From Escherichia phage A4, in sequence record ON286972: a stretch of DNA of 64,000 nt; one strand, written 5' to 3'. The notes below the pieces were generated by a model that was not told the origin of the DNA, did not search any database, and was given only the letters and a program-made list of their open reading frames with translations. Shown here piece after piece: positions 8,998-16,887 of the stretch. How positions within the stretch are numbered: the first letter of the stretch is position 1; every line of letters begins with the position of its first letter. Made by a program: the position numbers and the translations under genes.

Positions 8998-9615
8998 ATG
9001 ACTACATCACAAAAGTACTGGTGGATTTTGGGACACCCTGAATTTATCAATAAAGACTACGTTGATGCTCGCATTGATGTTGAGCCACACGATGTATGTC
9101 CCATCACAAATCGAATTGAAGATTATCCGGCCCTGAATACAAAAACACAGTACTGGATCGAAATGCTAACTCCGTTTTTCGATGAAGACGAAGGGAAGTT
9201 CGTTCGTGGACATGAGTACGAGTTGGATTGTGGTGGTGATACATATGAAGAAGCAATTGATAATTTATACACCAAGATCCTAGAAAAGTACGGTGATTAC
9301 ACACAAGAAGAAGCGGAAGCTAAGTATGATGCTGTACATCAGCGTGTAGTGACGAAAAGTGCTTTTCCTTCATCAATGTTCCAACCAGAAGAACTTCGTA
9401 ACACATGGGAGAACTCAAAATTATCTGAAATTGAACGTGATTATATTCCAGGTGATATTGAAAACATTAAAGGTACAATAAAAGCCTTGAAAGAATTCCT
9501 CAAAACTTGTACAATAGAAGAACAAGAAGAGGCAAACAAACATTTACAATCCGAGGAATGTAAACTATGGGTGCTTGAGGAATCACTTAGAAAAGGCATA
9601 GACTACAACATATGA
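8998..9615 (+). CDS. hypothetical acidic protein
   Basis: 205-aa ORF; followed by hairpin using AGTACTG arms at ~8958-8990 upstream. Confidence 0.45.
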   Translation: MTTSQKYWWILGHPEFINKDYVDARIDVEPHDVCPITNRIEDYPALNTKTQYWIEMLTPFFDEDEGKFVRGHEYELDCGGDTYEEAIDNLYTKILEKYGDYTQEEAEAKYDAVHQRVVTKSAFPSSMFQPEELRNTWENSKLSEIERDYIPGDIENIKGTIKALKEFLKTCTIEEQEEANKHLQSEECKLWVLEESLRKGIDYNI

Positions 9616-9980
9616 ACCCGAAATTGCTTAAACTGGTAGAAGAACTCCGTGAGATGCCGCCGATTGAACAAGTTGGCAATTACAAACGGTATAGAGTAAT
9701 TGCTCGTGCACTGGATAAGAAAGGTCGAGTACTGGCTACTCGTACCAACTCTTACACACAGACTCACCCTAAGCAGAAAGGCTTTGCAATTCGTGCGGGT
9801 CGCCCTCAAGGGGAATTTTTACACGCTGAAATTTCGTGTCTTCTTGCTGCTCGTGCTGAAGTACATACTCTTCTTATCGCTCGTGTAAGTAAAGATGGAA
9901 TTCCAGTTCCAGCAAAACCTTGTGAGATTTGTACATTAGCAATTCAGGAGTACGGGGTAAAAGAGATTATCCATACATGA
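9612..9980 (+). CDS. cytidine/deoxycytidylate deaminase-fold zinc enzyme
   Basis: HAE ... PCEIC zinc-binding signature (H[AC]E and PCxxC). Confidence 0.5.
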   Translation: MNPKLLKLVEELREMPPIEQVGNYKRYRVIARALDKKGRVLATRTNSYTQTHPKQKGFAIRAGRPQGEFLHAEISCLLAARAEVHTLLIARVSKDGIPVPAKPCEICTLAIQEYGVKEIIHT

Positions 9981-10786: not shown

Positions 10787-10863
10787 ACTATTCATTGGTT
10801 GCAGTGCAATTGCAATTTATATGTTATGCTAATCTGGTCAGTTGTTATTTTGTCTATTCTATA

Positions 10864-10888
10864 AAGCACCCAAGTGGTGCTTTTTGTG
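10864..10888 (+). terminator. rho-independent terminator
   Basis: AAGCACC-CAAGT-GGTGCTT hairpin then TTTTT. Confidence 0.55.
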
Positions 10889-11019
10889 TTTGTACAGTAC
10901 TTAATCAATTGCACTTTTCCTTGATTTAGGTCAAGAGAAAAAGGCCAATATGAGGCTATAATGCTCTTTGTTGAAGTTAAATAAATTCACCCAAACGAAT
11001 AACATACAAGGAATGTGAA

Positions 11020-12825
11020 ATGCAAATAGATAAATTATATACGGACGTAACTAACTTCCTCAACCAGAGTAACGCTGATTTAACAAACGAAAATGCAAAT
11101 AAAGACGCTAAATGTGTTAATACACATCGTGATTTATTGGCAGGTATTCTTTCTAAACATTATTCCCAAGATGTGATTCCTGATGAATTGATGAAGTGGC
11201 ATAATGAAGGTTACGGTCATATTCATGATTTAGACTATTACATTAGCCCATTAACAAACTGTTGTTTAGTTAATTATCCTGATATGCTTGCTAATGGCTT
11301 CATGATTGGTTGTGCCAAGATTGAAGAACCAAAAAGCTTTGGGGTAGCTTGTACAGTACTAACACAGATTGTTCAGGCTGTTGCAAGCTCACAGTACGGT
11401 GGTCAGTCGTTGGCTCACATTGACACTGGCCTTGCACCATATGTACAAAAGTCATGGAATAAACTTCTAGAAAAACAAAAGAAATACAATCTTAGTACTG
11501 AATTCATTGAAGATGAGTTGCGTAAGGAAGTTTATGACGGTTGTCAAACAATTCTATATCAAACAAACTCAATGATCAGTACTAATGGTCAGGCTGCGTT
11601 CATTTCTTTAAGTTTAGGATTAGGTACATCTAAATTTGAAAAACTAATCACTGAACAATATTTGAAAGTACATGAAAATGGACTAGGTAAAGATAAGATT
11701 ACTCCAGTATTCCCTAAAGTAATATTCTTTCTTCAGGATGGAATTAATATGAACAGTACTGATTGTAATTATGACTTAAAACAATTAGCTATGCGTTGTG
11801 CAGCTAAACGCATCTATCCTGATTTTGTATCAGTACCTTTGAATCAAAAAGTTACTGGAAGCACAACTATTCCTGTTACTCCGATGGGATGCAGAAGTTT
11901 CTTAGGGAAATGGGAAAATACACAAGGAGAAGAAAAATACAATGGTAGATTCAACCTTGGCGTTGTGTCTATCAACTTACCACTAATTGCTCTTGAGAGT
12001 GAGTCTGATGGTGATTTCTTTGATAAGATTGACGAGCACATGAATATTGCTTACAGAGCACAGATGAACCGTGTAGAACGTTTAAAAGGTACAAAGGCAA
12101 AACAAAACCCTATACTTTTCGCTGAAGGTGCGATTGCACGTCTTGATCCTGAAGACACTATTGACCATTTATTTTATAATGGTTATGCTAGTATCAGTAT
12201 TGGTTATGTTGGGTTATCTGAGTGTTCAGAGATCCTCACTGGTTCAATTAGTAAAGAGTTCTGTATGAGTATTTTGAACTACATGAAAGCAAAATGTGAT
12301 GAATTCAAAAAAGAGAGTAACATTGCATTTAGTCTTTACGGTACACCAGCAGAATCACTATGTTATAAATTTGCACGTTGTATTGAGGCAAAACATCCTT
12401 CAGTACTGAAACGTGACTTTATCACTAACTCATTCCATCAACCAGTATGGGTTGAAAGTACACCTTTTGCTAAATGGGATTATGAGGAAAACTTTGCTTA
12501 TCTAAGCAATGGTGGTAATATTAGCTATGTCGAAACACCAAATCTAGCTAATAATATACAAGCACTAGAAACATTAATAAATTTTGCTTATACTAAAATT
12601 CCATATTTTGGTATTAATCAGAAGGTCGATAAGTGTTTTGAATGTGATTTTGAGGGTGAATTTAGTGTAGATAAAAATGGTTTCCATTGTCCGGTATGTG
12701 ACAACCGCAATGAACGCACAATGTCGGTTATTCGCAGAGTATCAGGATATCTTAGTGCACCAAATAGTCGCCCGTTCAATAAAGGTAAACAAGCTGAAGT
12801 TATTCAACGTATACAACACATGTAA
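11020..12825 (+). CDS. nrdD: anaerobic ribonucleoside-triphosphate reductase (class III)
   Basis: 601-aa; C-terminal Cys cluster CFECDFEG..CPVCDN and glycyl-radical-like RRVSGYL; adjacent nrdG. Confidence 0.8.
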   Translation: MQIDKLYTDVTNFLNQSNADLTNENANKDAKCVNTHRDLLAGILSKHYSQDVIPDELMKWHNEGYGHIHDLDYYISPLTNCCLVNYPDMLANGFMIGCAKIEEPKSFGVACTVLTQIVQAVASSQYGGQSLAHIDTGLAPYVQKSWNKLLEKQKKYNLSTEFIEDELRKEVYDGCQTILYQTNSMISTNGQAAFISLSLGLGTSKFEKLITEQYLKVHENGLGKDKITPVFPKVIFFLQDGINMNSTDCNYDLKQLAMRCAAKRIYPDFVSVPLNQKVTGSTTIPVTPMGCRSFLGKWENTQGEEKYNGRFNLGVVSINLPLIALESESDGDFFDKIDEHMNIAYRAQMNRVERLKGTKAKQNPILFAEGAIARLDPEDTIDHLFYNGYASISIGYVGLSECSEILTGSISKEFCMSILNYMKAKCDEFKKESNIAFSLYGTPAESLCYKFARCIEAKHPSVLKRDFITNSFHQPVWVESTPFAKWDYEENFAYLSNGGNISYVETPNLANNIQALETLINFAYTKIPYFGINQKVDKCFECDFEGEFSVDKNGFHCPVCDNRNERTMSVIRRVSGYLSAPNSRPFNKGKQAEVIQRIQHM

Positions 12826-12834
12826 GGAGATATT

Positions 12835-13197
12835 ATGTCAATTCAAGGTAAACAAGTCATGTCTGGTGAGCACCGTGGAACTATCATGCTAATAGAAAAT
12901 GATATTGCACGTATTATTGTATCAAAGACCTTTTCTGAAGATGATGAAGTACTTTTGAGTACTTTTGATGGTGAGGTACTGCGTGATGTGGAAATTCAAC
13001 ACGCACCGAATATTGAAGGTGGGCAGCACTTGAATGTAAATGTTCTATCTAAAGAACAACTCATTGATGCACAAAATAATCCAGAAAAGTATCCGCAACT
13101 TACAATTCGTGTTAGTGGTTATGCAGTTCGTTTCAATTCACTAACAAAAGAACAACAAGATGATGTAATCAATCGTACTTTTACTAAAGGTCTATGA
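12835..13197 (+). CDS. grcA: GrcA/YfiD-like autonomous glycyl-radical cofactor protein
   Basis: [37 protein letters not shown] closely matches E. coli YfiD glycyl-radical domain (from memory). Confidence 0.75.
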
Positions 13198-13529
13198 TGG
13201 ACTTAAAACCAATTGTAGTTAACAAATATAAAGAACCATATGATGTGTATATTGGTCGTGGGTCTAAATGGGGAAATCCATTTACCCACATTAATGACAA
13301 ACAAACAAAGGCAGAGTTTATAGTTCCGACACGAGAAGAGTCGATTGAGAAGTTCAGAGAGTATCTTATCCAAAGAATTGAAAATGGTGAGGTTACTATC
13401 GAAGAACTACTTGAATTGGCTGGGAAGCGTCTTGGGTGCTTTTGTAAGCCAAAATCATGTCATGGTGATGTTCTTGTAGAAATAGTGAGTGCAATATTAG
13501 ATGAATTACCAGACGATAATCAAGGATGA
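13194..13529 (+). CDS. DUF4326-like protein
   Basis: [12 protein letters not shown] ... [11 protein letters not shown] pattern. Confidence 0.45.
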
Positions 13530-13980
13530 TTTAGTTAATGGGGAGGGAGTTAGATGCTCCCTTTTTGTTTCAGGGTGTAGCCACGGATGTGAAGAATGCT
13601 TCAACGAAAAAGCATGGGATTATCGCAGTGGTTCAGAATTCAGTACTGAAACAGTTGAAATCATCCTGAATGAACTTAACAAGCCATATGTACAAGGATT
13701 ATCCCTTTTAGGTGGTGATCCATTGATGCCAAAGAATATCAGTACTGTTATTGAGTTATGTAAAGTAGTAAAAGAAAAATATCCAAATAAAGATATTTGG
13801 TGCTGGAGTGGTTATACTTTAGAGGAAATAATAAATAATCATGCCTCCGCAATACTAGAGTACATTGATGTATTAGTTGATGGTAAATTTATTCTTGAAG
13901 AAAAGAATTTAGAATTACCATTTAGAGGCTCTAATAATCAACGTATTCTTCGTAAAGGAGTAGATTATGCGTTATCTTGA
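13501..13980 (+). CDS. nrdG: anaerobic ribonucleotide reductase activating protein (radical SAM)
   Basis: GEGVRCSLFVSGCSHGCEEC radical-SAM CxxxCxxC-like cluster; next to nrdD. Confidence 0.75.
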   Translation: MNYQTIIKDDLVNGEGVRCSLFVSGCSHGCEECFNEKAWDYRSGSEFSTETVEIILNELNKPYVQGLSLLGGDPLMPKNISTVIELCKVVKEKYPNKDIWCWSGYTLEEIINNHASAILEYIDVLVDGKFILEEKNLELPFRGSNNQRILRKGVDYALS

Positions 13981-14125
13981 TATTATTTCTGAAAAGATAC
14001 AGAAACGTGGAAATGAGTGGGTTGTTACTGACCACACAGGGAAGAAAGTTCTCGGTCGTCACCCAACCAGAAAAGAAGCACTTAAACAATTAAGAGCAGT
14101 TGAATTTTCTAAACACGGCGGTTAA
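13967..14125 (+). CDS. small hypothetical protein (52 aa)
   Basis: ORF below track cutoff; AAAGGAG 8 nt upstream; followed by terminator. Confidence 0.3.
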   Translation: MRYLDIISEKIQKRGNEWVVTDHTGKKVLGRHPTRKEALKQLRAVEFSKHGG

Positions 14126-14131
14126 TATGAA

Positions 14132-14156
14132 GAAGCACCCTTTGGGTGCTTTTTTT
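14132..14156 (+). terminator. rho-independent terminator
   Basis: AAGCACCC-TTTG-GGTGCTT then TTTTTT. Confidence 0.6.
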
Positions 14157-14163
14157 ATACTAT

Positions 14164-14171
14164 TATAAATA
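14164..14171 (+). promoter_or_regulatory. T4-type late promoter-like TATAAATA
   Basis: exact TATAAATA ~30 bp upstream of tail-fibre gene start. Confidence 0.35.
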
Positions 14172-14202: not shown

Positions 14203-16887
14203 ATGGCAAAGAAAATATATGGTGGCATTGATGTTACACATAATGTAACAGTCAAAGGTAAGAGAAGTGTTCAGAGCATCAATGATAACGTATTTGATGA
14301 AAATGGCAATCTCACAATAGATGCATATACACAAGATGATATGCTGGAAATGGTTGGTATGTTACCCATTTCTCGTTATGGTACACAAAACTATCTACCT
14401 GCTGGTGTCAATGGTACAACAGTTGGTTCTTCAGAAAATACTAAATCCAGAAATACAAAATTATTTTTGGAAGATGATAACACTTTAGTAATGCTACGTC
14501 CTGGTACAAATGGGAGTACACAAGGGGTTTATTATAGTTATATGACCCAGGCGGTTGGTACAACAAATACAAGTCGTATGGTTAATACTACTCGTGCATA
14601 TAAACCAAATTATTTTGGTGATTATTATGCATACCATTTATATTCATGTAGTGATGATATTACATGTGGTATGGCAAGTAATGGTTCAATTAATAAACTT
14701 TTTGTATCCGTTAATAATGGCACAATGAACGATGCAATGCATACCGGAATTTTAATTGATGACTATGCTTCAGTTAGGCCAATTGGTGAAGTACAATTTG
14801 TTATTCGTGCAGAAGATGGTGCATTATACTTTTTCAGTTTAGATACACCAAGCAATACTCTTAAAATATCAGTGGTTAAAGTTACTTTTAGTCCAAGTAA
14901 TAACCCAGGTGGTGGTACTTATAGTGTTACTAGAATTACTGGTTGGGCCACAAGAACTTTTTATAATGCAATGGTATATGATGACAATATTGTTCCAACT
15001 ATGAAAATAAATTCAACAAATACCAATGATAATCCATACGTTTTAATTCCAAGTGGTATTATTGGGTTTGGTATTTATATGACAGACCCAGATTTATATG
15101 TTGCACAGAAATCAGGTACAACTACATTTAAATTTAGATTATGTGGCGATATGTGGATGACTAACGGCAGATATGATATACGACCACAACACAGTTTTAG
15201 TATGACTTTTGATATTGCTACTAAGCAATGTGCATTGGATAATATGACAACTACTACACCAGTTGCTGTTTATGATAATGGTACAAGCATGAATGAATCT
15301 GGTCCATGTTTAACAACTGACCCGTTTTATCTTCACGCAGGTGGACGTAACATTTTCAGTAATTATTGCTATGTTCCATCAACTGGGGATGCGTTTTGCT
15401 CATTTTCACCAAACCTTGCAGAAGCATTGAATATATCATATGCAAAATACCCACCCAAATCATTATTTGATTTAATGGATGTTAGAAGTGTATCGGCAAC
15501 TGATTTTATTAATGGTGTCGTATCACCAAGATTTGGTTCAGCAGTTGGTTCATTCCAAGTGGGTGTGGAGTTATTACCAAATAACAGTACTAAGCAATAT
15601 TCAAGACGTTCAGGTGATGGTCGTTTTTATCCATCCTATGCTGTACATAAAGCTACCCCGAACTTTACATTTAAGTCTCTAGACTATGGTAATGTTCTTG
15701 GCTATGAACCAACACCAGACCGAGCGTTTATAACTACACCAGAATCTAGAATTTTTATAAGTTCAATTTCTGGTTCAACGGTAACGACTAATGGTGGTGT
15801 TTTGGTGGCTGATAATAGAACATCAACGCCAATTAGTTTTGATTATAAAGGTAATGTACTGAATAATGGTACAATCAGTATGTCACAAGATATAATGAAT
15901 TCCATTAGAAATTCCGAATTTGCTAAAGTTGCTAGTTCATGGAATATATCACCAGCATCAATAAAAACATTATCTGTATTTGTTCCACAACAAACTGATA
16001 TTCCTGTTTTTGGTGTTCTTGCAGCATCTACTACAGCCCGTGGTCTATATATTCGAGTTGTTGAATTGAATGTCAATACAAGAACTGGTGATATTACAAC
16101 ATGGTCGTTCAAACGTTTAGTACATGAAAGTGTTCAAGCTGGGGATTACAAAACAGATACCGCATATCATCTTGATAGTGGAAGTATTGGTATTACTATA
16201 TATGATGCGGGTTCTTTCTACTTCATTGGTGGTGGTATTCCTGGTTTCTTTAATACAGTTGGTAATACAAACTCTCCATTTTTCCGTGCTACAGTGGATA
16301 AAGCGACAGCCCAATTTAATAATTTCCATATAGCTGGTGCACGTCCGATCTATGCATTAGATGGTCAACCATTCGCTTTACCTAACATTGGGTTTGGTAT
16401 TCTTCAAAGTATAGATAATAATAACAAAACAATTTTTAGAACATATGGTACAACATTAGCGGATTATAATGCATGGACTGATAAAGGAAATCCATTTATA
16501 TGTCTTGTTTCCCAAGATGTTGCTCAAGGTTTTATTATATACTTCACCGAAGAGACACCAGTACTGATATCCGGTAAACACTATACATTACCAATATCAA
16601 ATATAGATTTAACAACTGTGAAAGCAAATCCTGCCAATACTACATTTTATGTGTATATTAAATTAGTACAGGGTATTGCAAACTATCATATATCAACAAC
16701 TGAATTAGCTGAAACTCATTCAATATTCTGGATTGGTACAGTGAAAACTGATAATTTACAAATAACCGAAATTAATATAGAAAAACGTTCTCGTTTAGAC
16801 CTGTTTGGTTCATCATTCAACGCTGCCGGAAGTTCCTTCCCAGTAAGTTCTGGGTTCCCTTCAAGTTCTGGTAATGTGAATTGGTAA
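14203..16887 (+). CDS. tail fibre protein
   Basis: 894-aa Ser/Thr/Asn/Gly-rich; C-terminal module shared with 16898-17488 and 17499-20240. Confidence 0.55.
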   Translation: MAKKIYGGIDVTHNVTVKGKRSVQSINDNVFDENGNLTIDAYTQDDMLEMVGMLPISRYGTQNYLPAGVNGTTVGSSENTKSRNTKLFLEDDNTLVMLRPGTNGSTQGVYYSYMTQAVGTTNTSRMVNTTRAYKPNYFGDYYAYHLYSCSDDITCGMASNGSINKLFVSVNNGTMNDAMHTGILIDDYASVRPIGEVQFVIRAEDGALYFFSLDTPSNTLKISVVKVTFSPSNNPGGGTYSVTRITGWATRTFYNAMVYDDNIVPTMKINSTNTNDNPYVLIPSGIIGFGIYMTDPDLYVAQKSGTTTFKFRLCGDMWMTNGRYDIRPQHSFSMTFDIATKQCALDNMTTTTPVAVYDNGTSMNESGPCLTTDPFYLHAGGRNIFSNYCYVPSTGDAFCSFSPNLAEALNISYAKYPPKSLFDLMDVRSVSATDFINGVVSPRFGSAVGSFQVGVELLPNNSTKQYSRRSGDGRFYPSYAVHKATPNFTFKSLDYGNVLGYEPTPDRAFITTPESRIFISSISGSTVTTNGGVLVADNRTSTPISFDYKGNVLNNGTISMSQDIMNSIRNSEFAKVASSWNISPASIKTLSVFVPQQTDIPVFGVLAASTTARGLYIRVVELNVNTRTGDITTWSFKRLVHESVQAGDYKTDTAYHLDSGSIGITIYDAGSFYFIGGGIPGFFNTVGNTNSPFFRATVDKATAQFNNFHIAGARPIYALDGQPFALPNIGFGILQSIDNNNKTIFRTYGTTLADYNAWTDKGNPFICLVSQDVAQGFIIYFTEETPVLISGKHYTLPISNIDLTTVKANPANTTFYVYIKLVQGIANYHISTTELAETHSIFWIGTVKTDNLQITEINIEKRSRLDLFGSSFNAAGSSFPVSSGFPSSSGNVNW

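Follow-up and report, generated by a model that had tools for sequence, protein, structure and literature searches.

A GrcA-type glycyl radical "spare part" encoded within the anaerobic ribonucleotide reductase operon of Escherichia phage A4

In Escherichia phage A4 (sequence record ON286972), an open reading frame (ORF) for a small protein with a glycyl radical domain lies between nrdD and nrdG, the genes for class III ribonucleotide reductase (RNR) and its activase. Given that NrdD is itself a glycyl radical enzyme, this arrangement raises the questions of what the small protein is, where its gene came from, and which enzyme it serves. We analyzed the locus within a 64,000-nt stretch of the phage genome (hereafter the window), together with related loci in phages and bacteria. 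The gene is an ordinary member of a known family, GrcA-type spare parts of phages having been known since 2001 and being widespread. The useful part is the context, in which a clade of giant enterobacterial phages has the spare-part gene inside an nrdD-nrdG operon whose FNR-type promoter is conserved. Such a context suggests a phage "anaerobic kit" that would read the host oxygen sensor and protect both dNTP synthesis and the pyruvate formate-lyase (PFL) reaction supplying its reductant. New here are the conserved putative FNR box at -41.5, the indel that distinguishes PBECO4-type relatives, and the recurrent linkage of grcA to nrdD/nrdG in large phages.

Organization of the nrd operon and its upstream region

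Four plus-strand genes (nrdD, the GrcA-like ORF, a DUF4326 gene, and nrdG) are tightly packed between positions 11020 and 13980 of the window, and all ORFs are present at the coordinates given in Table 1. Including a 52-aa ORF behind nrdG, the operon reads in the order terminator, promoter, five coupled genes, and terminator. Nine nucleotides separate nrdD from the GrcA-like ATG, which has an AAGGAG ribosome-binding site ahead of it, the GrcA-like stop and DUF4326 start codons overlap as ATGA, and DUF4326 and nrdG share a 29-nt overlap; judged by the ATGA overlap, DUF4326 is translationally coupled to the GrcA-like gene. The nrdG product scores 201.4 bits against the TIGR02491 NrdG profile (cut-off 126.1). 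The 52-aa ORF matches phrog_3684 (E 1.4e-17) and has a counterpart with 75% identity behind nrdG in RaK2, and the hairpin upstream of the operon is kept in ph0011, slurp01, Muenster, and Munch. DUF4326, for which a note by the Muenster annotators names T4 NrdA.1, is a predicted rhodanese-phosphatase-like enzyme with ADP-ribose derivatives as substrates (PMC9503650), and is probably an unrelated passenger of the operon. The Munch-type operon differs from that of the window in having no DUF4326 gene.

Table 1. Positions of genes, signals, and radical glycine codons of the nrd operon in the window.
Feature	Position	Strand	Remarks
Intrinsic terminator hairpin AAAGCACCC...GGTGCTTT and T run	10863..10883	+	Terminator scan; ends upstream transcription unit
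FNR-box-like palindrome TTGATTTAGGTCAA	10921..10934	+	One mismatch to TTGAT-N4-ATCAA
Perfect -10 hexamer TATAAT	10957..10962	+	22 nt past FNR box; read from sequence
TAAATA motif	10978..10983	+	42 nt 5' of nrdD ATG
nrdD	11020..12825	+	601 aa; Pfam PF13597, E 8e-163
Codon of NrdD Gly576	12745..12747	+	Motif RRVSGYLS
Shine-Dalgarno AAGGAG of GrcA-like gene	12824..12829	+	Overlaps nrdD stop codon; read from sequence
GrcA/YfiD/Y06I-type autonomous glycyl radical cofactor ("spare part")	12835..13197	+	120 aa; PF01228 Gly_radical
Codon of GrcA-like Gly95 (predicted radical glycine)	13117..13119	+	Motif RVSGYAV
DUF4326 (T4 NrdA.1-like)	13194..13529	+	Pfam PF14216, E 5e-25; phrog_464
nrdG, radical-SAM activase of class III RNR	13501..13980	+	Pfam Fer4_12, E 1e-52
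52-aa ORF	13967..14125	+	Own AAGGAG ribosome-binding site; final gene ahead of terminator
Intrinsic terminator AAGCACCC-TTT-GGGTGCTT then TTTTTAT	14133..14156	+	Hairpin by scan; T run read from sequence

Matches to the structure of T4 NrdD (1H78, E 1.7e-167) and to NCBIfam NF006732 (767.9 bits, cut-off 657) identify the nrdD product as a T4/E. coli-type anaerobic (class III) ribonucleoside-triphosphate reductase. The T4 and E. coli proteins are NrdD1 enzymes, which use formate (PMC4493059). As the original prediction held, NrdD of the window keeps its own C-terminal RRVSGYL, within the glycyl radical motif RRVSGYLS that contains Gly576; this motif is preceded by the zinc-ribbon cysteines CFEC and CPVC (zinc ribbon at residues 539 and 557). 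The RVSGY core is common to NrdD and the GrcA-like protein. That NrdD acquired RVSGY in response to an accompanying grcA was ruled out, since the motif is also found in NrdD of slurp01, a phage without grcA.

Class II FNR promoters carry TTGAT-N4-ATCAA near -41.5 together with a -10 hexamer, and do not need a -35 element. In sequence geometry, the region upstream of nrdD matches a promoter of this class: with a transcription start near 10969, the predicted FNR box would have its centre at -41.5, and no other FNR box (one mismatch or fewer) in the window is followed at 21-23 nt by a TATAAT-like hexamer. The half-sites of the predicted box are invariant in nine of nine related loci (window counted), with variable spacer and flanks, and the spacing from box to TATAAT is identical in ph0011, slurp01, and Muenster/RaK2; in the Yersinia/Serratia-phage lineage, the box is followed by a poor -10 element. 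We infer from this pattern that the nrd operon may in fact depend on FNR. A sigma-70 promoter scan of the region returned fewer matches than shuffled sequence and was therefore uninformative. The TAAATA motif nearer to nrdD is invariant across seven aligned phages, is approximately 7-fold enriched in intergenic regions, and occurs 33-56 nt upstream of nine genes in the window, and is probably a phage-type (T4-late-like) promoter core. With such a conserved promoter sited downstream of the FNR-type one, expression may not strictly depend on anaerobiosis. FNR boxes also precede the host gene, E. coli grcA having two of its own, and the T4-like and T5-like copies of grcA differ from the window gene in this respect, an upstream FNR box being found at one of 74 loci, namely a 19-kb contig. 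No discussion of nrdD-grcA-nrdG linkage, or of an FNR-dependent phage nrd promoter, was found in the literature searched.

Family membership of the GrcA-like protein

Resemblance of the ORF to E. coli YfiD/GrcA, the starting point of the original prediction, was confirmed by BLASTP (61/99 identities, 62%, E 7e-39) and by its Pfam domain (Gly_radical, 64.2 bits vs a cut-off of 22.2). Over the last 60 residues, identity is 80% to GrcA, 80% to PflB, and 75% to TdcE; matches in the PDB include residues 669-758 of PflB (E 4.5e-30) and YfiD (6OWR, E 5.7e-30), and in a fold search the predicted C-terminal structure could be superposed on both 6OWR and 2PFL. An alignment of 19 sequences contains 39 invariant columns, among them EGGQHLN and the motif bearing the radical glycine. 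The layout of an N-terminal region and a C-terminal radical domain resembles that of E. coli GrcA, and differs from PflB/TdcE in that the protein is free-standing and has an N-terminal region that may be of the GrcA type. T4 Y06I, which we take to be the product of gene vs.6 (GenBank annotations and PMC1524935 agree), is similar in several respects: the T4-type Vs.6 of RB32 likewise has 120 aa, T4-type Vs.6 is approximately 60% identical over its full length, N-terminal half included, its radical-glycine motif is identical, and it too is encoded by a phage that has nrdD and nrdG.

The top NCBIfam family for the protein was GrcA (TIGR04365, E 2.9e-37), with a score (127.8 bits) under the equivalog cut-off of 170 bits; since RB32 Vs.6 (153.3 bits) also fails and E. 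coli GrcA scores 233.9, this cut-off delimits bacterial GrcA and not the functional class. Profile and alignment place the product of the 120-aa ORF, a phage protein, in the family of autonomous glycyl radical cofactors to which E. coli YfiD/GrcA and T4 Y06I belong.

Similarity is weakest at the N-terminus. Alignment to phage and bacterial GrcA starts at approximately residue 19-25 (ARIIVSKTF vs ARCIVAKAGF), the first 20 or so residues being only loosely similar, and against E. coli GrcA the N-terminal 25 or so are barely alignable. The N-terminal half is predicted by AlphaFold2 as a small beta domain (pLDDT 83-89), for which a fold search gave only weak KOW/SH3-like matches (E 0.05-0.5), whereas residues 1-60 of E. 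coli YfiD are disordered by NMR. In YfiD, the N-terminal region is required for binding of cleaved PFL and for efficient activation.

Since NrdD and the small protein share the Gly_radical Pfam domain and the ORF directly follows nrdD, one could read it as a copy of the NrdD C-terminus or as a functionless gene in decay, carried along as a passenger. Direct BLASTP rules out the duplicate, finding 14/36 identities to residues 562-597 of NrdD (E 0.016, vs E 7e-39 for GrcA), a negligible similarity, and the protein has no cysteines, hence no NrdD-type CxxC...CxxC zinc ribbon. Furthermore, comparison with ph0011 gives a dN/dS of 0.11 and comparison with Munch one of 0.18, both halves being constrained (pN 0.04-0.10 in the C-terminal half), the ribosome-binding site is strong, and the gene is kept in five phage lineages, so that either form of this reading is next to impossible. 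The dN/dS values indicate a functional gene under purifying selection.

Origin and distribution among phages

Homologues are found in 1584 phage records, several of which are already annotated as GrcA. In five lineages of RaK2-like phages (~350 kb), the gene is at the same position: grcA shares the nrd-operon slot in ph0011, Muenster/RaK2/K64-1, Munch, and fHe-Yen9-03, with 66-90% identity between the window protein and its jumbo-phage relatives, and is annotated "autonomous glycyl radical cofactor" in Klebsiella phage Muenster (CPT_Muenster_215) and "glycyl radical cofactor" in Salmonella phage Munch. A 66.7%-identical GrcA-like copy is present in Serratia BF and Erwinia phages. The window phage is a distinct relative within this group (best DNA match 82%), and the operons differ in detail: in the Munch type the grcA stop codon overlaps the nrdG start, in fHe-Yen9-03 extra genes lie between grcA and nrdG, and in PBECO4-type relatives grcA is missing through a clean indel. 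Linkage to nrdD/nrdG in other gene orders was found in a 330-kb metagenomic phage and in the 235-kb contig L170 (nrdD-nrdG-grcA). In T4-like and T5-like phages grcA is far from nrdDG, T4 vs.6 being located in the vs-e region, and nrdD was near bacterial grcA or pflB at none of 80 loci. E. coli grcA is monocistronic between ung and eamB, in contrast to the embedded gene of the window.

Identities of the GrcA-like protein to its relatives (90/75/73/68%) parallel those of NrdD (90/72/72/72%). We therefore consider vertical inheritance of the gene within the nrdD-...-nrdG operon of the RaK2-like clade likely, which would make it an old property of these phages. The original prediction had read the high similarity to GrcA as a hint of recent host capture, and the 80% protein similarity of the C-terminal 60 residues would agree with capture from an enterobacterial grcA. 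However, DNA identity to grcA in 5426 E. coli genomes is 71% and confined to the 3' 176 nt, with the 5' half unaligned, and in a scan of bacterial species genomes the best of approximately 600 matching proteins reach 48-64% full-length identity, compared to 66-98% for more than 30 phage or metagenomic proteins. The bacterial GrcA clade in a neighbour-joining tree (bootstrap 72) leaves out the window protein, whose divergence tracks that of NrdD, and the GC content of the gene (0.35) fits the phage. Two features of bacterial GrcA that T4-like Vs.6 does have, a 2-residue insertion and an LTPEQQRDVIA signature, are also missing from the window protein; in the T4-like cluster representative P0060, which carries the insertion, all of the last 60 aa are those of E. 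coli GrcA (100% identity). Recent host capture did not stand up to these comparisons, and we regard it as extremely unlikely.

In the same tree (102 sequences, 118 columns), the short phage and bacterial proteins, that of the window included, split from the PflB/TdcE C-termini with a bootstrap of 92; deep branches, on which a count of phage acquisitions would depend, have bootstraps below 10. Independent capture of a PflB/TdcE C-terminus was considered because the window protein has the PflB-like LTKEQQ (LTKEQQ-DVI motif) and, like PflB, lacks the GrcA insertion, and because the T5-like copies resemble TdcE (85% over 60 aa); it is unsupported, all short proteins grouping together and probably having the N-terminal region in common.

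Possible roles in the infected cell

The explanation that we favour, and judge likely, is that the protein is a phage spare part that rescues oxygen-cleaved host PFL and is made together with class III RNR. Host PFL (PflB) would be cut by oxygen at its radical glycine and the cleaved enzyme bound by the small GrcA-like protein; a radical-SAM activase (most probably PflA of the host) would then install a glycyl radical on Gly95, and the C-terminal domain of the small protein would substitute for the lost C-terminus of PflB, restoring PFL activity. Through the FNR-type promoter, spare part and oxygen-sensitive RNR would be produced together in the anaerobic or microaerobic infected cell. The phage could benefit from PFL activity in two ways: (i) acetyl-CoA, and from it ATP, and (ii) formate, the reductant of T4/E. 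coli-type NrdD. T4 Y06I provides the precedent, as PFL-AE activates it and it returns oxygen-cleaved PFL to activity (Wagner et al. 2001, BBRC 285:456, described in PMC8683613), and spare-part biochemistry comes from E. coli YfiD and T4 Y06I only (PMC8683613). By analogy, activation by PflA and PFL rescue may be expected of the window protein, its most likely role being to rescue the host PFL that provides NrdD with formate; the formate link may also be the reason for the position of grcA in the nrd operon. Of the two functions named in the original prediction, host PFL repair during infection thus has a demonstrated counterpart in T4, and supply of a replacement radical domain to NrdD fares poorly for a PFL-type domain that lacks the NrdD zinc ribbon.

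Service to NrdD nevertheless deserves consideration, as the protein could be an NrdG-activated spare part that replaces the C-terminal radical domain of NrdD cleaved at Gly576. The flanking of grcA by nrdD and nrdG in five lineages of jumbo phages, its overlap with nrdG in the Munch type, the linkage in the 330-kb phage and L170 but not near bacterial grcA/pflB, and the shared RVSGY core all point in this direction; with such a protein, spare parts would for the first time extend beyond PFL to another glycyl radical enzyme, a possibility that reviews hold to be an open question. Against this, the radical domain resembles PflB/GrcA far more than the phage's own NrdD and has no zinc ribbon of the kind found before the NrdD Gly loop, RRVSGYL occurs in the grcA-less phage slurp01 as well, T4-like and T5-like homologues are unlinked to nrdDG, and T4 Y06I acts on PFL with PFL-AE. 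On balance we find it very unlikely. Improbable, too, is that the protein belongs to an FNR-switched class III RNR module and is activated by NrdG, either replacing the NrdD C-terminus or repairing PFL for formate, in which case it would be the first spare part with an activase that is not PFL-AE, or an enzyme that is not PFL.

Manipulation of the host rather than repair is another conceivable role, the protein drawing host PflA (or phage NrdG) away as a decoy substrate or radical sink, or capping PflB, and so redirecting pyruvate flux or activase capacity to NrdD. It has the complete activase recognition motif RVSGYAV, is predicted from the operon to be co-expressed with an activase-dependent enzyme, and possesses an N-terminal half, the predicted beta domain, that is unlike bacterial GrcA. 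However, the entire PflB-mimicking surface is strongly constrained, as seen from the invariant columns and low pN, which fits insertion into the PFL barrel, and the T4 homologue restores PFL activity and does not inhibit it. We consider manipulation unlikely, and PFL rescue remains the preferred explanation.

Because the T4-like and T5-like copies are unlinked to nrdDG, linkage is not needed for function, and the position of grcA in jumbo phages could be a historical accident. Relatives with and without grcA, whose operons are otherwise near-identical, form a natural test set that bears on (i) the value of a spare part in the microaerobic gut, (ii) whether an RNR activase charges a PFL-type radical domain, and (iii) the question, raised in recent reviews, of spare parts for non-PFL glycyl radical enzymes. 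That the PBECO4-type relatives do without grcA counts against the favoured explanation.

Identity of the 120-residue protein

All four ORFs of the nrdD-grcA-DUF4326-nrdG cluster lie exactly where the original prediction had placed them, and the similarity it proposed of the 120-residue product to E. coli GrcA (YfiD, the autonomous glycyl radical cofactor) is borne out by alignment to the GrcA of a RefSeq genome, with 61/99 identities (E 7e-39). A duplicated NrdD C-terminus, envisaged there as the alternative to a specific GrcA affinity, is ruled out, the match to the phage's own NrdD comprising only 14/36 identities (E 0.016). The best PDB matches are residues 669-758 of pyruvate formate-lyase (PFL; PflB; E 4.5e-30) and the YfiD NMR structure 6OWR (E 5.7e-30), followed at 1e-10 or weaker by other PFL-like glycyl radical enzymes; no NrdD entry appears among the matches listed (E up to 0.01). 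Restricting the comparison to the C-terminal 60 residues gives 80% identity with both GrcA and PflB and 75% with TdcE. Alignment of 19 phage, GrcA, and PflB sequences reveals 39 invariant columns, including EGGQHLN and the motif of the radical glycine (Gly95), and the C-terminal domain of an AlphaFold2 model (mean pLDDT 76) superposes on 6OWR and 2PFL. The NCBIfam GrcA equivalog (cut-off 170 bits) is passed by E. coli GrcA (233.9) and not by the window protein (127.8) or a T4-type Vs.6 (RB32; 153.3); since the latter, near kin of the characterised T4 protein, also fails, the cut-off delimits bacterial GrcA and leaves out the phage proteins. Judged by sequence, the ORF encodes a spare part of the GrcA type.

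The gene belongs to a family that is already known, characterised, and annotated. Homologues were found by tblastn in 1584 of 50,697 phage records, T4-like (gene vs.6, about 60% full-length identity), T5-like, and jumbo phages among them. Annotations in many records read "autonomous glycyl radical cofactor" or, more loosely, "pyruvate formate-lyase"; the corresponding PHROGs family, phrog_1209, is still listed as of unknown function. We take T4 Y06I to be the vs.6 product, an assumption that agrees with the record annotations and with that of Nolan et al. 2006. According to PMC8683613 and PMC13450708, which relate Wagner et al. 2001, the spare parts with biochemical validation are two, E. coli YfiD and T4 Y06I: PFL-activating enzyme charges each of them, and each restores oxygen-cleaved PFL. 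Gene vs.6 was recorded as a Gly_radical ORF kept in six of six T4-like genomes, with a guessed role in nucleotide metabolism (Nolan et al. 2006, PMC1524935). The operon context, presence/absence polymorphism, and conserved FNR-type promoter described below add modestly to this picture and bring a few open questions within reach of testing.

For the N-terminal half, AlphaFold2 predicts a compact five-stranded beta domain (pLDDT 83-89) with weak KOW/SH3-like fold matches, whereas NMR reportedly shows this half to be disordered in E. coli YfiD; either the model over-predicts structure here or phage spare parts may truly differ.

Operon layout and predicted promoters

With a GC content of about 0.35, the window is AT-rich, and coding lies nearly all on the + strand. 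The arrangement of the nrd genes, bounded by two intrinsic terminator hairpins, is summarised below.

Features of the nrd operon and its surroundings (window positions)
Feature	Position	Strand	Details
Deaminase-like small ORF	9612-9980		cytidine/dCMP type; PF00383, E 5e-7
Terminator hairpin, 5' of operon	10863-10883
FNR-box-like palindrome	10921-10934		TTGATTTAGGTCAA; in 233-nt spacer 5' of nrdD; one mismatch to TTGAT-N4-ATCAA
TATAAT hexamer	10957-10962		perfect; 22 nt after FNR box
TAAATA	10978-10983		just downstream of predicted start; invariant 5' of nrdD in 7 phages
nrdD	11020-12825	+	601 aa; Pfam NRDD plus Gly_radical, E 8e-163
GrcA-like ORF	12835-13197	+	120 aa; Pfam Gly_radical, 64.2 bits (cut-off 22.2)
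Predicted beta domain	12835-13010		residues 1-58 of GrcA-like protein
DUF4326 ORF	13194-13529	+	111 aa; Pfam E 5e-25
nrdG	13501-13980	+	Pfam Fer4_12 plus Radical_SAM, E 1e-52
52-aa ORF	13967-14125	+	own AAGGAG; overlaps nrdG end; last gene before terminator; phrog_3684
Terminator hairpin, 3' of operon	14133-14151		plus T run
Other TAAATA sites	14166-14171		also 5' of genes starting 23610, 27571, 44599, 46422, 49164, 49481, 50252
894-aa ORF	14203-16887		directly downstream of operon; phrog_3573; perfect TATAAATA 5' of it

By its sequence layout the gene packing is operon-like: an AAGGAG ribosome-binding site overlaps the nrdD stop 5 nt ahead of the GrcA-like ATG, an ATGA overlap couples translation of DUF4326 to the GrcA-like ORF, and nrdG begins 29 nt inside DUF4326. 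By its match to structure 1H78 (E 1.7e-167), NrdD belongs to the T4/E. coli type. Among neighbouring genes, the 52-aa ORF has a 75%-identical copy at the same place in Klebsiella phage RaK2 and none in Escherichia phage ph0011. The deaminase-like ORF, a further nucleotide-metabolism gene about 1 kb 5' of the operon, is kept in ph0011 and Muenster. The ph0011 orthologue of the 894-aa ORF carries a "T5orf172 domain" note, and Muenster has tail-fibre genes on the opposite strand at that position.

The spacing of the palindrome and hexamer 5' of nrdD matches that of class II FNR promoters, the box being centred at -41.5 if transcription starts near 10969. This combination occurs only once in the 64-kb window, both strands counted; the expectation from Markov-simulated sequences is 0.45 per window, equivalent to roughly 8e-4 for this spacer and strand. 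The box is found at the orthologous place in nine of nine related loci (the window and loci L002, L003, L006, L007, L009, and L094-L096), with invariant half-sites and variable N4 spacer and flanks. It is perfect in Muenster and RaK2 (TTGATTTAAATCAA) and in Munch, fHe-Yen9-03/04, and L095 (TTGATCTAGATCAA); host grcA has two FNR boxes upstream, 53 nt apart, one of them identical to the Muenster/RaK2 box. In the Yersinia/Serratia-phage lineage the box is followed by a poor -10 element. The conserved half-sites and single occurrence suggest that the phage nrd operon reads the host oxygen sensor FNR; no paper describing this promoter was found in the literature collection searched. TAAATA shows an enrichment of about 7-fold in intergenic DNA and stands 33-56 nt 5' of nine window genes, often just past a terminator hairpin. 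Given this position and enrichment, it is probably the T4-late-like promoter core of this phage group, and the nrd operon is probably under dual control by FNR-type and TAAATA phage-type elements.

Distribution, linkage, and descent

At the DNA level the nrd region resembles ph0011 most (82% identity), with 73% for K64-1, Muenster, and RaK2 of Klebsiella; all four are jumbo myoviruses of ~350 kb, from Asteriusvirus and Alcyoneusvirus, which makes the window a new relative inside a known phage group. These four phages share the order nrdD-grcA-DUF4326-nrdG, while Munch, SE_PL, 7t3, and fENko-Kae01 have nrdD-grcA-nrdG without DUF4326 (grcA and nrdG overlapping by ATGA) and fHe-Yen9-03/04 have grcA in the same slot with extra ORFs interspersed. 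A copy with 66.7% identity is found at corresponding genome coordinates in Serratia phage BF and the Erwinia pEa_SNUABM phages, and in IMG/VR locus L095 nrdD and nrdG lie to either side of the grcA-like gene. Across relatives, identity to the window falls in step for GrcA (90, 75, 73, and 68%) and NrdD (90, 72, 72, and 72%), and pairing the GrcA-like gene with its ph0011 and Munch counterparts gives dN/dS values of 0.11 and 0.18, respectively, with constraint in both halves. PBECO4/slurp01-type Asteriusvirus phages, none of which is among the best 60 tblastn records, have nrdD-DUF4326-nrdG and lack grcA; their junction (L003 3990-4020 versus window 12820-13200) is a clean cassette-sized indel with DUF4326 8 nt after nrdD, and flanking genes in these natural grcA+/grcA- pairs are about 90% identical. 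The common slot, parallel divergence, low dN/dS, and PBECO4-type absence together indicate that grcA is old in the clade, functional, and dispensable. DUF4326, present without grcA in slurp01 and missing from the Munch type, is for that reason independent of the spare part. Its product matches phrog_464 and, more weakly, an "NrdA-like" phrog; kinship to T4 NrdA.1 comes from an annotators' note. Association of DUF4326 with nrd genes recurs in T4 and jumbo phages, and its predicted role as a rhodanese-phosphatase-like enzyme on ADP-ribose derivatives (Iyer, Burroughs and Aravind, PMC9503650, PMC7824862) offers no explanation for it.

Linkage to nrdDG is not universal. Both genes lie within 8-kb flanks of the grcA-like gene in only 4/80 viral-contig loci, namely three jumbo relatives and a 235-kb contig (L170; nrdD-nrdG-grcA), and in a 330-kb metagenomic phage an ATP-cone nrdD and nrdG are followed by grcA at a distance of 3.7 kb. 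No linkage was seen at T4-like (vs-e region) or T5-like loci, where annotators' notes place NrdD elsewhere in the genome, nor was nrdD found within 3 kb of bacterial grcA or pflB at any of 80 loci. Linkage has thus appeared in two or three lineages of large phages at the least, with differing gene orders, which is suggestive of a functional tie.

The high similarity to GrcA had originally been read as a hint of recent host capture, which is not supported. Against E. coli grcA (all 5426 genomes), only the 3' 176 nt of the window gene align, at 71%. A scan of one bacterial or archaeal genome per species (185,579 species) recovered many GrcA and PflB/TdcE loci, none above 48-64% identity over the aligned length, and phage and metagenomic proteins reach 66-98%, the highest being encoded on an 11-kb metagenomic contig. 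A neighbour-joining tree built from 102 sequences over 118 columns (100 bootstraps) sets all short proteins apart from PflB/TdcE C-termini (bootstrap 92); its bacterial GrcA clade (72) leaves out the window protein, and the latter groups with its three closest protein-search homologues, including ph0011 and TH47 (P0002-P0004; 97); deeper branches have bootstraps below 10. Bacterial GrcA and T4-like Vs.6 have in common a 2-residue insertion ahead of EGGQHLN and LT[PTA]EQQRDVIA, while jumbo and T5-like proteins are without the insertion and read LTKEQQ[DN]DVI, like PflB. In P0060, which represents a T4-like cluster, the final 60 residues match E. coli GrcA with 100% identity. The appearance of a recent borrower, if it fits any phage lineage, fits the T4-like one and not that of the window. 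From such C-terminal sequences, phage lineages seem to differ in which host formate-lyase radical domain they track; these differences may reflect separate acquisitions or convergence, the tree being compatible with both. The T5-like proteins P0065 and P0085 end in NALTREQQNDVISRTFTQAM, close to TdcE.

Proposed role

Two recipients of the spare radical domain had been proposed, NrdD and host PFL. Supply to NrdD is unlikely, the domain being of PFL type and without the zinc ribbon of NrdD. NrdD itself retains a complete radical domain (CFEC and CPVC zinc-ribbon cysteines, RRVSGYLS with Gly576). By analogy with the characterised spare parts, repair of host PFL is plausible, and this part of the original interpretation stands together with the GrcA-type assignment. 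On homology to YfiD and Y06I, the protein would bind oxygen-cleaved host PflB; for YfiD, both the binding of cleaved PFL and efficient activation depend on its N-terminal half. A radical-SAM activase would then charge Gly95, and the C-terminal domain would supply the radical loop and helix lost by PflB. The reductant of T4/E. coli-type NrdD is formate, a product of PFL (PMC4493059), and we infer that, under microaerobic conditions in a host whose transcription is shut down, PFL upkeep would sustain both ATP and the reductant for dNTP synthesis. NrdD, NrdG, and PFL are useful at low oxygen only and are all damaged by oxygen, which, along with the use of formate by NrdD, might be the reason for the operon placement. 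The activase is most likely host PflA, the one employed by T4 Y06I; phage NrdG, being distantly homologous to PflA (TIGR02493, E 1e-9; cross-hits), may also be capable of the activation.
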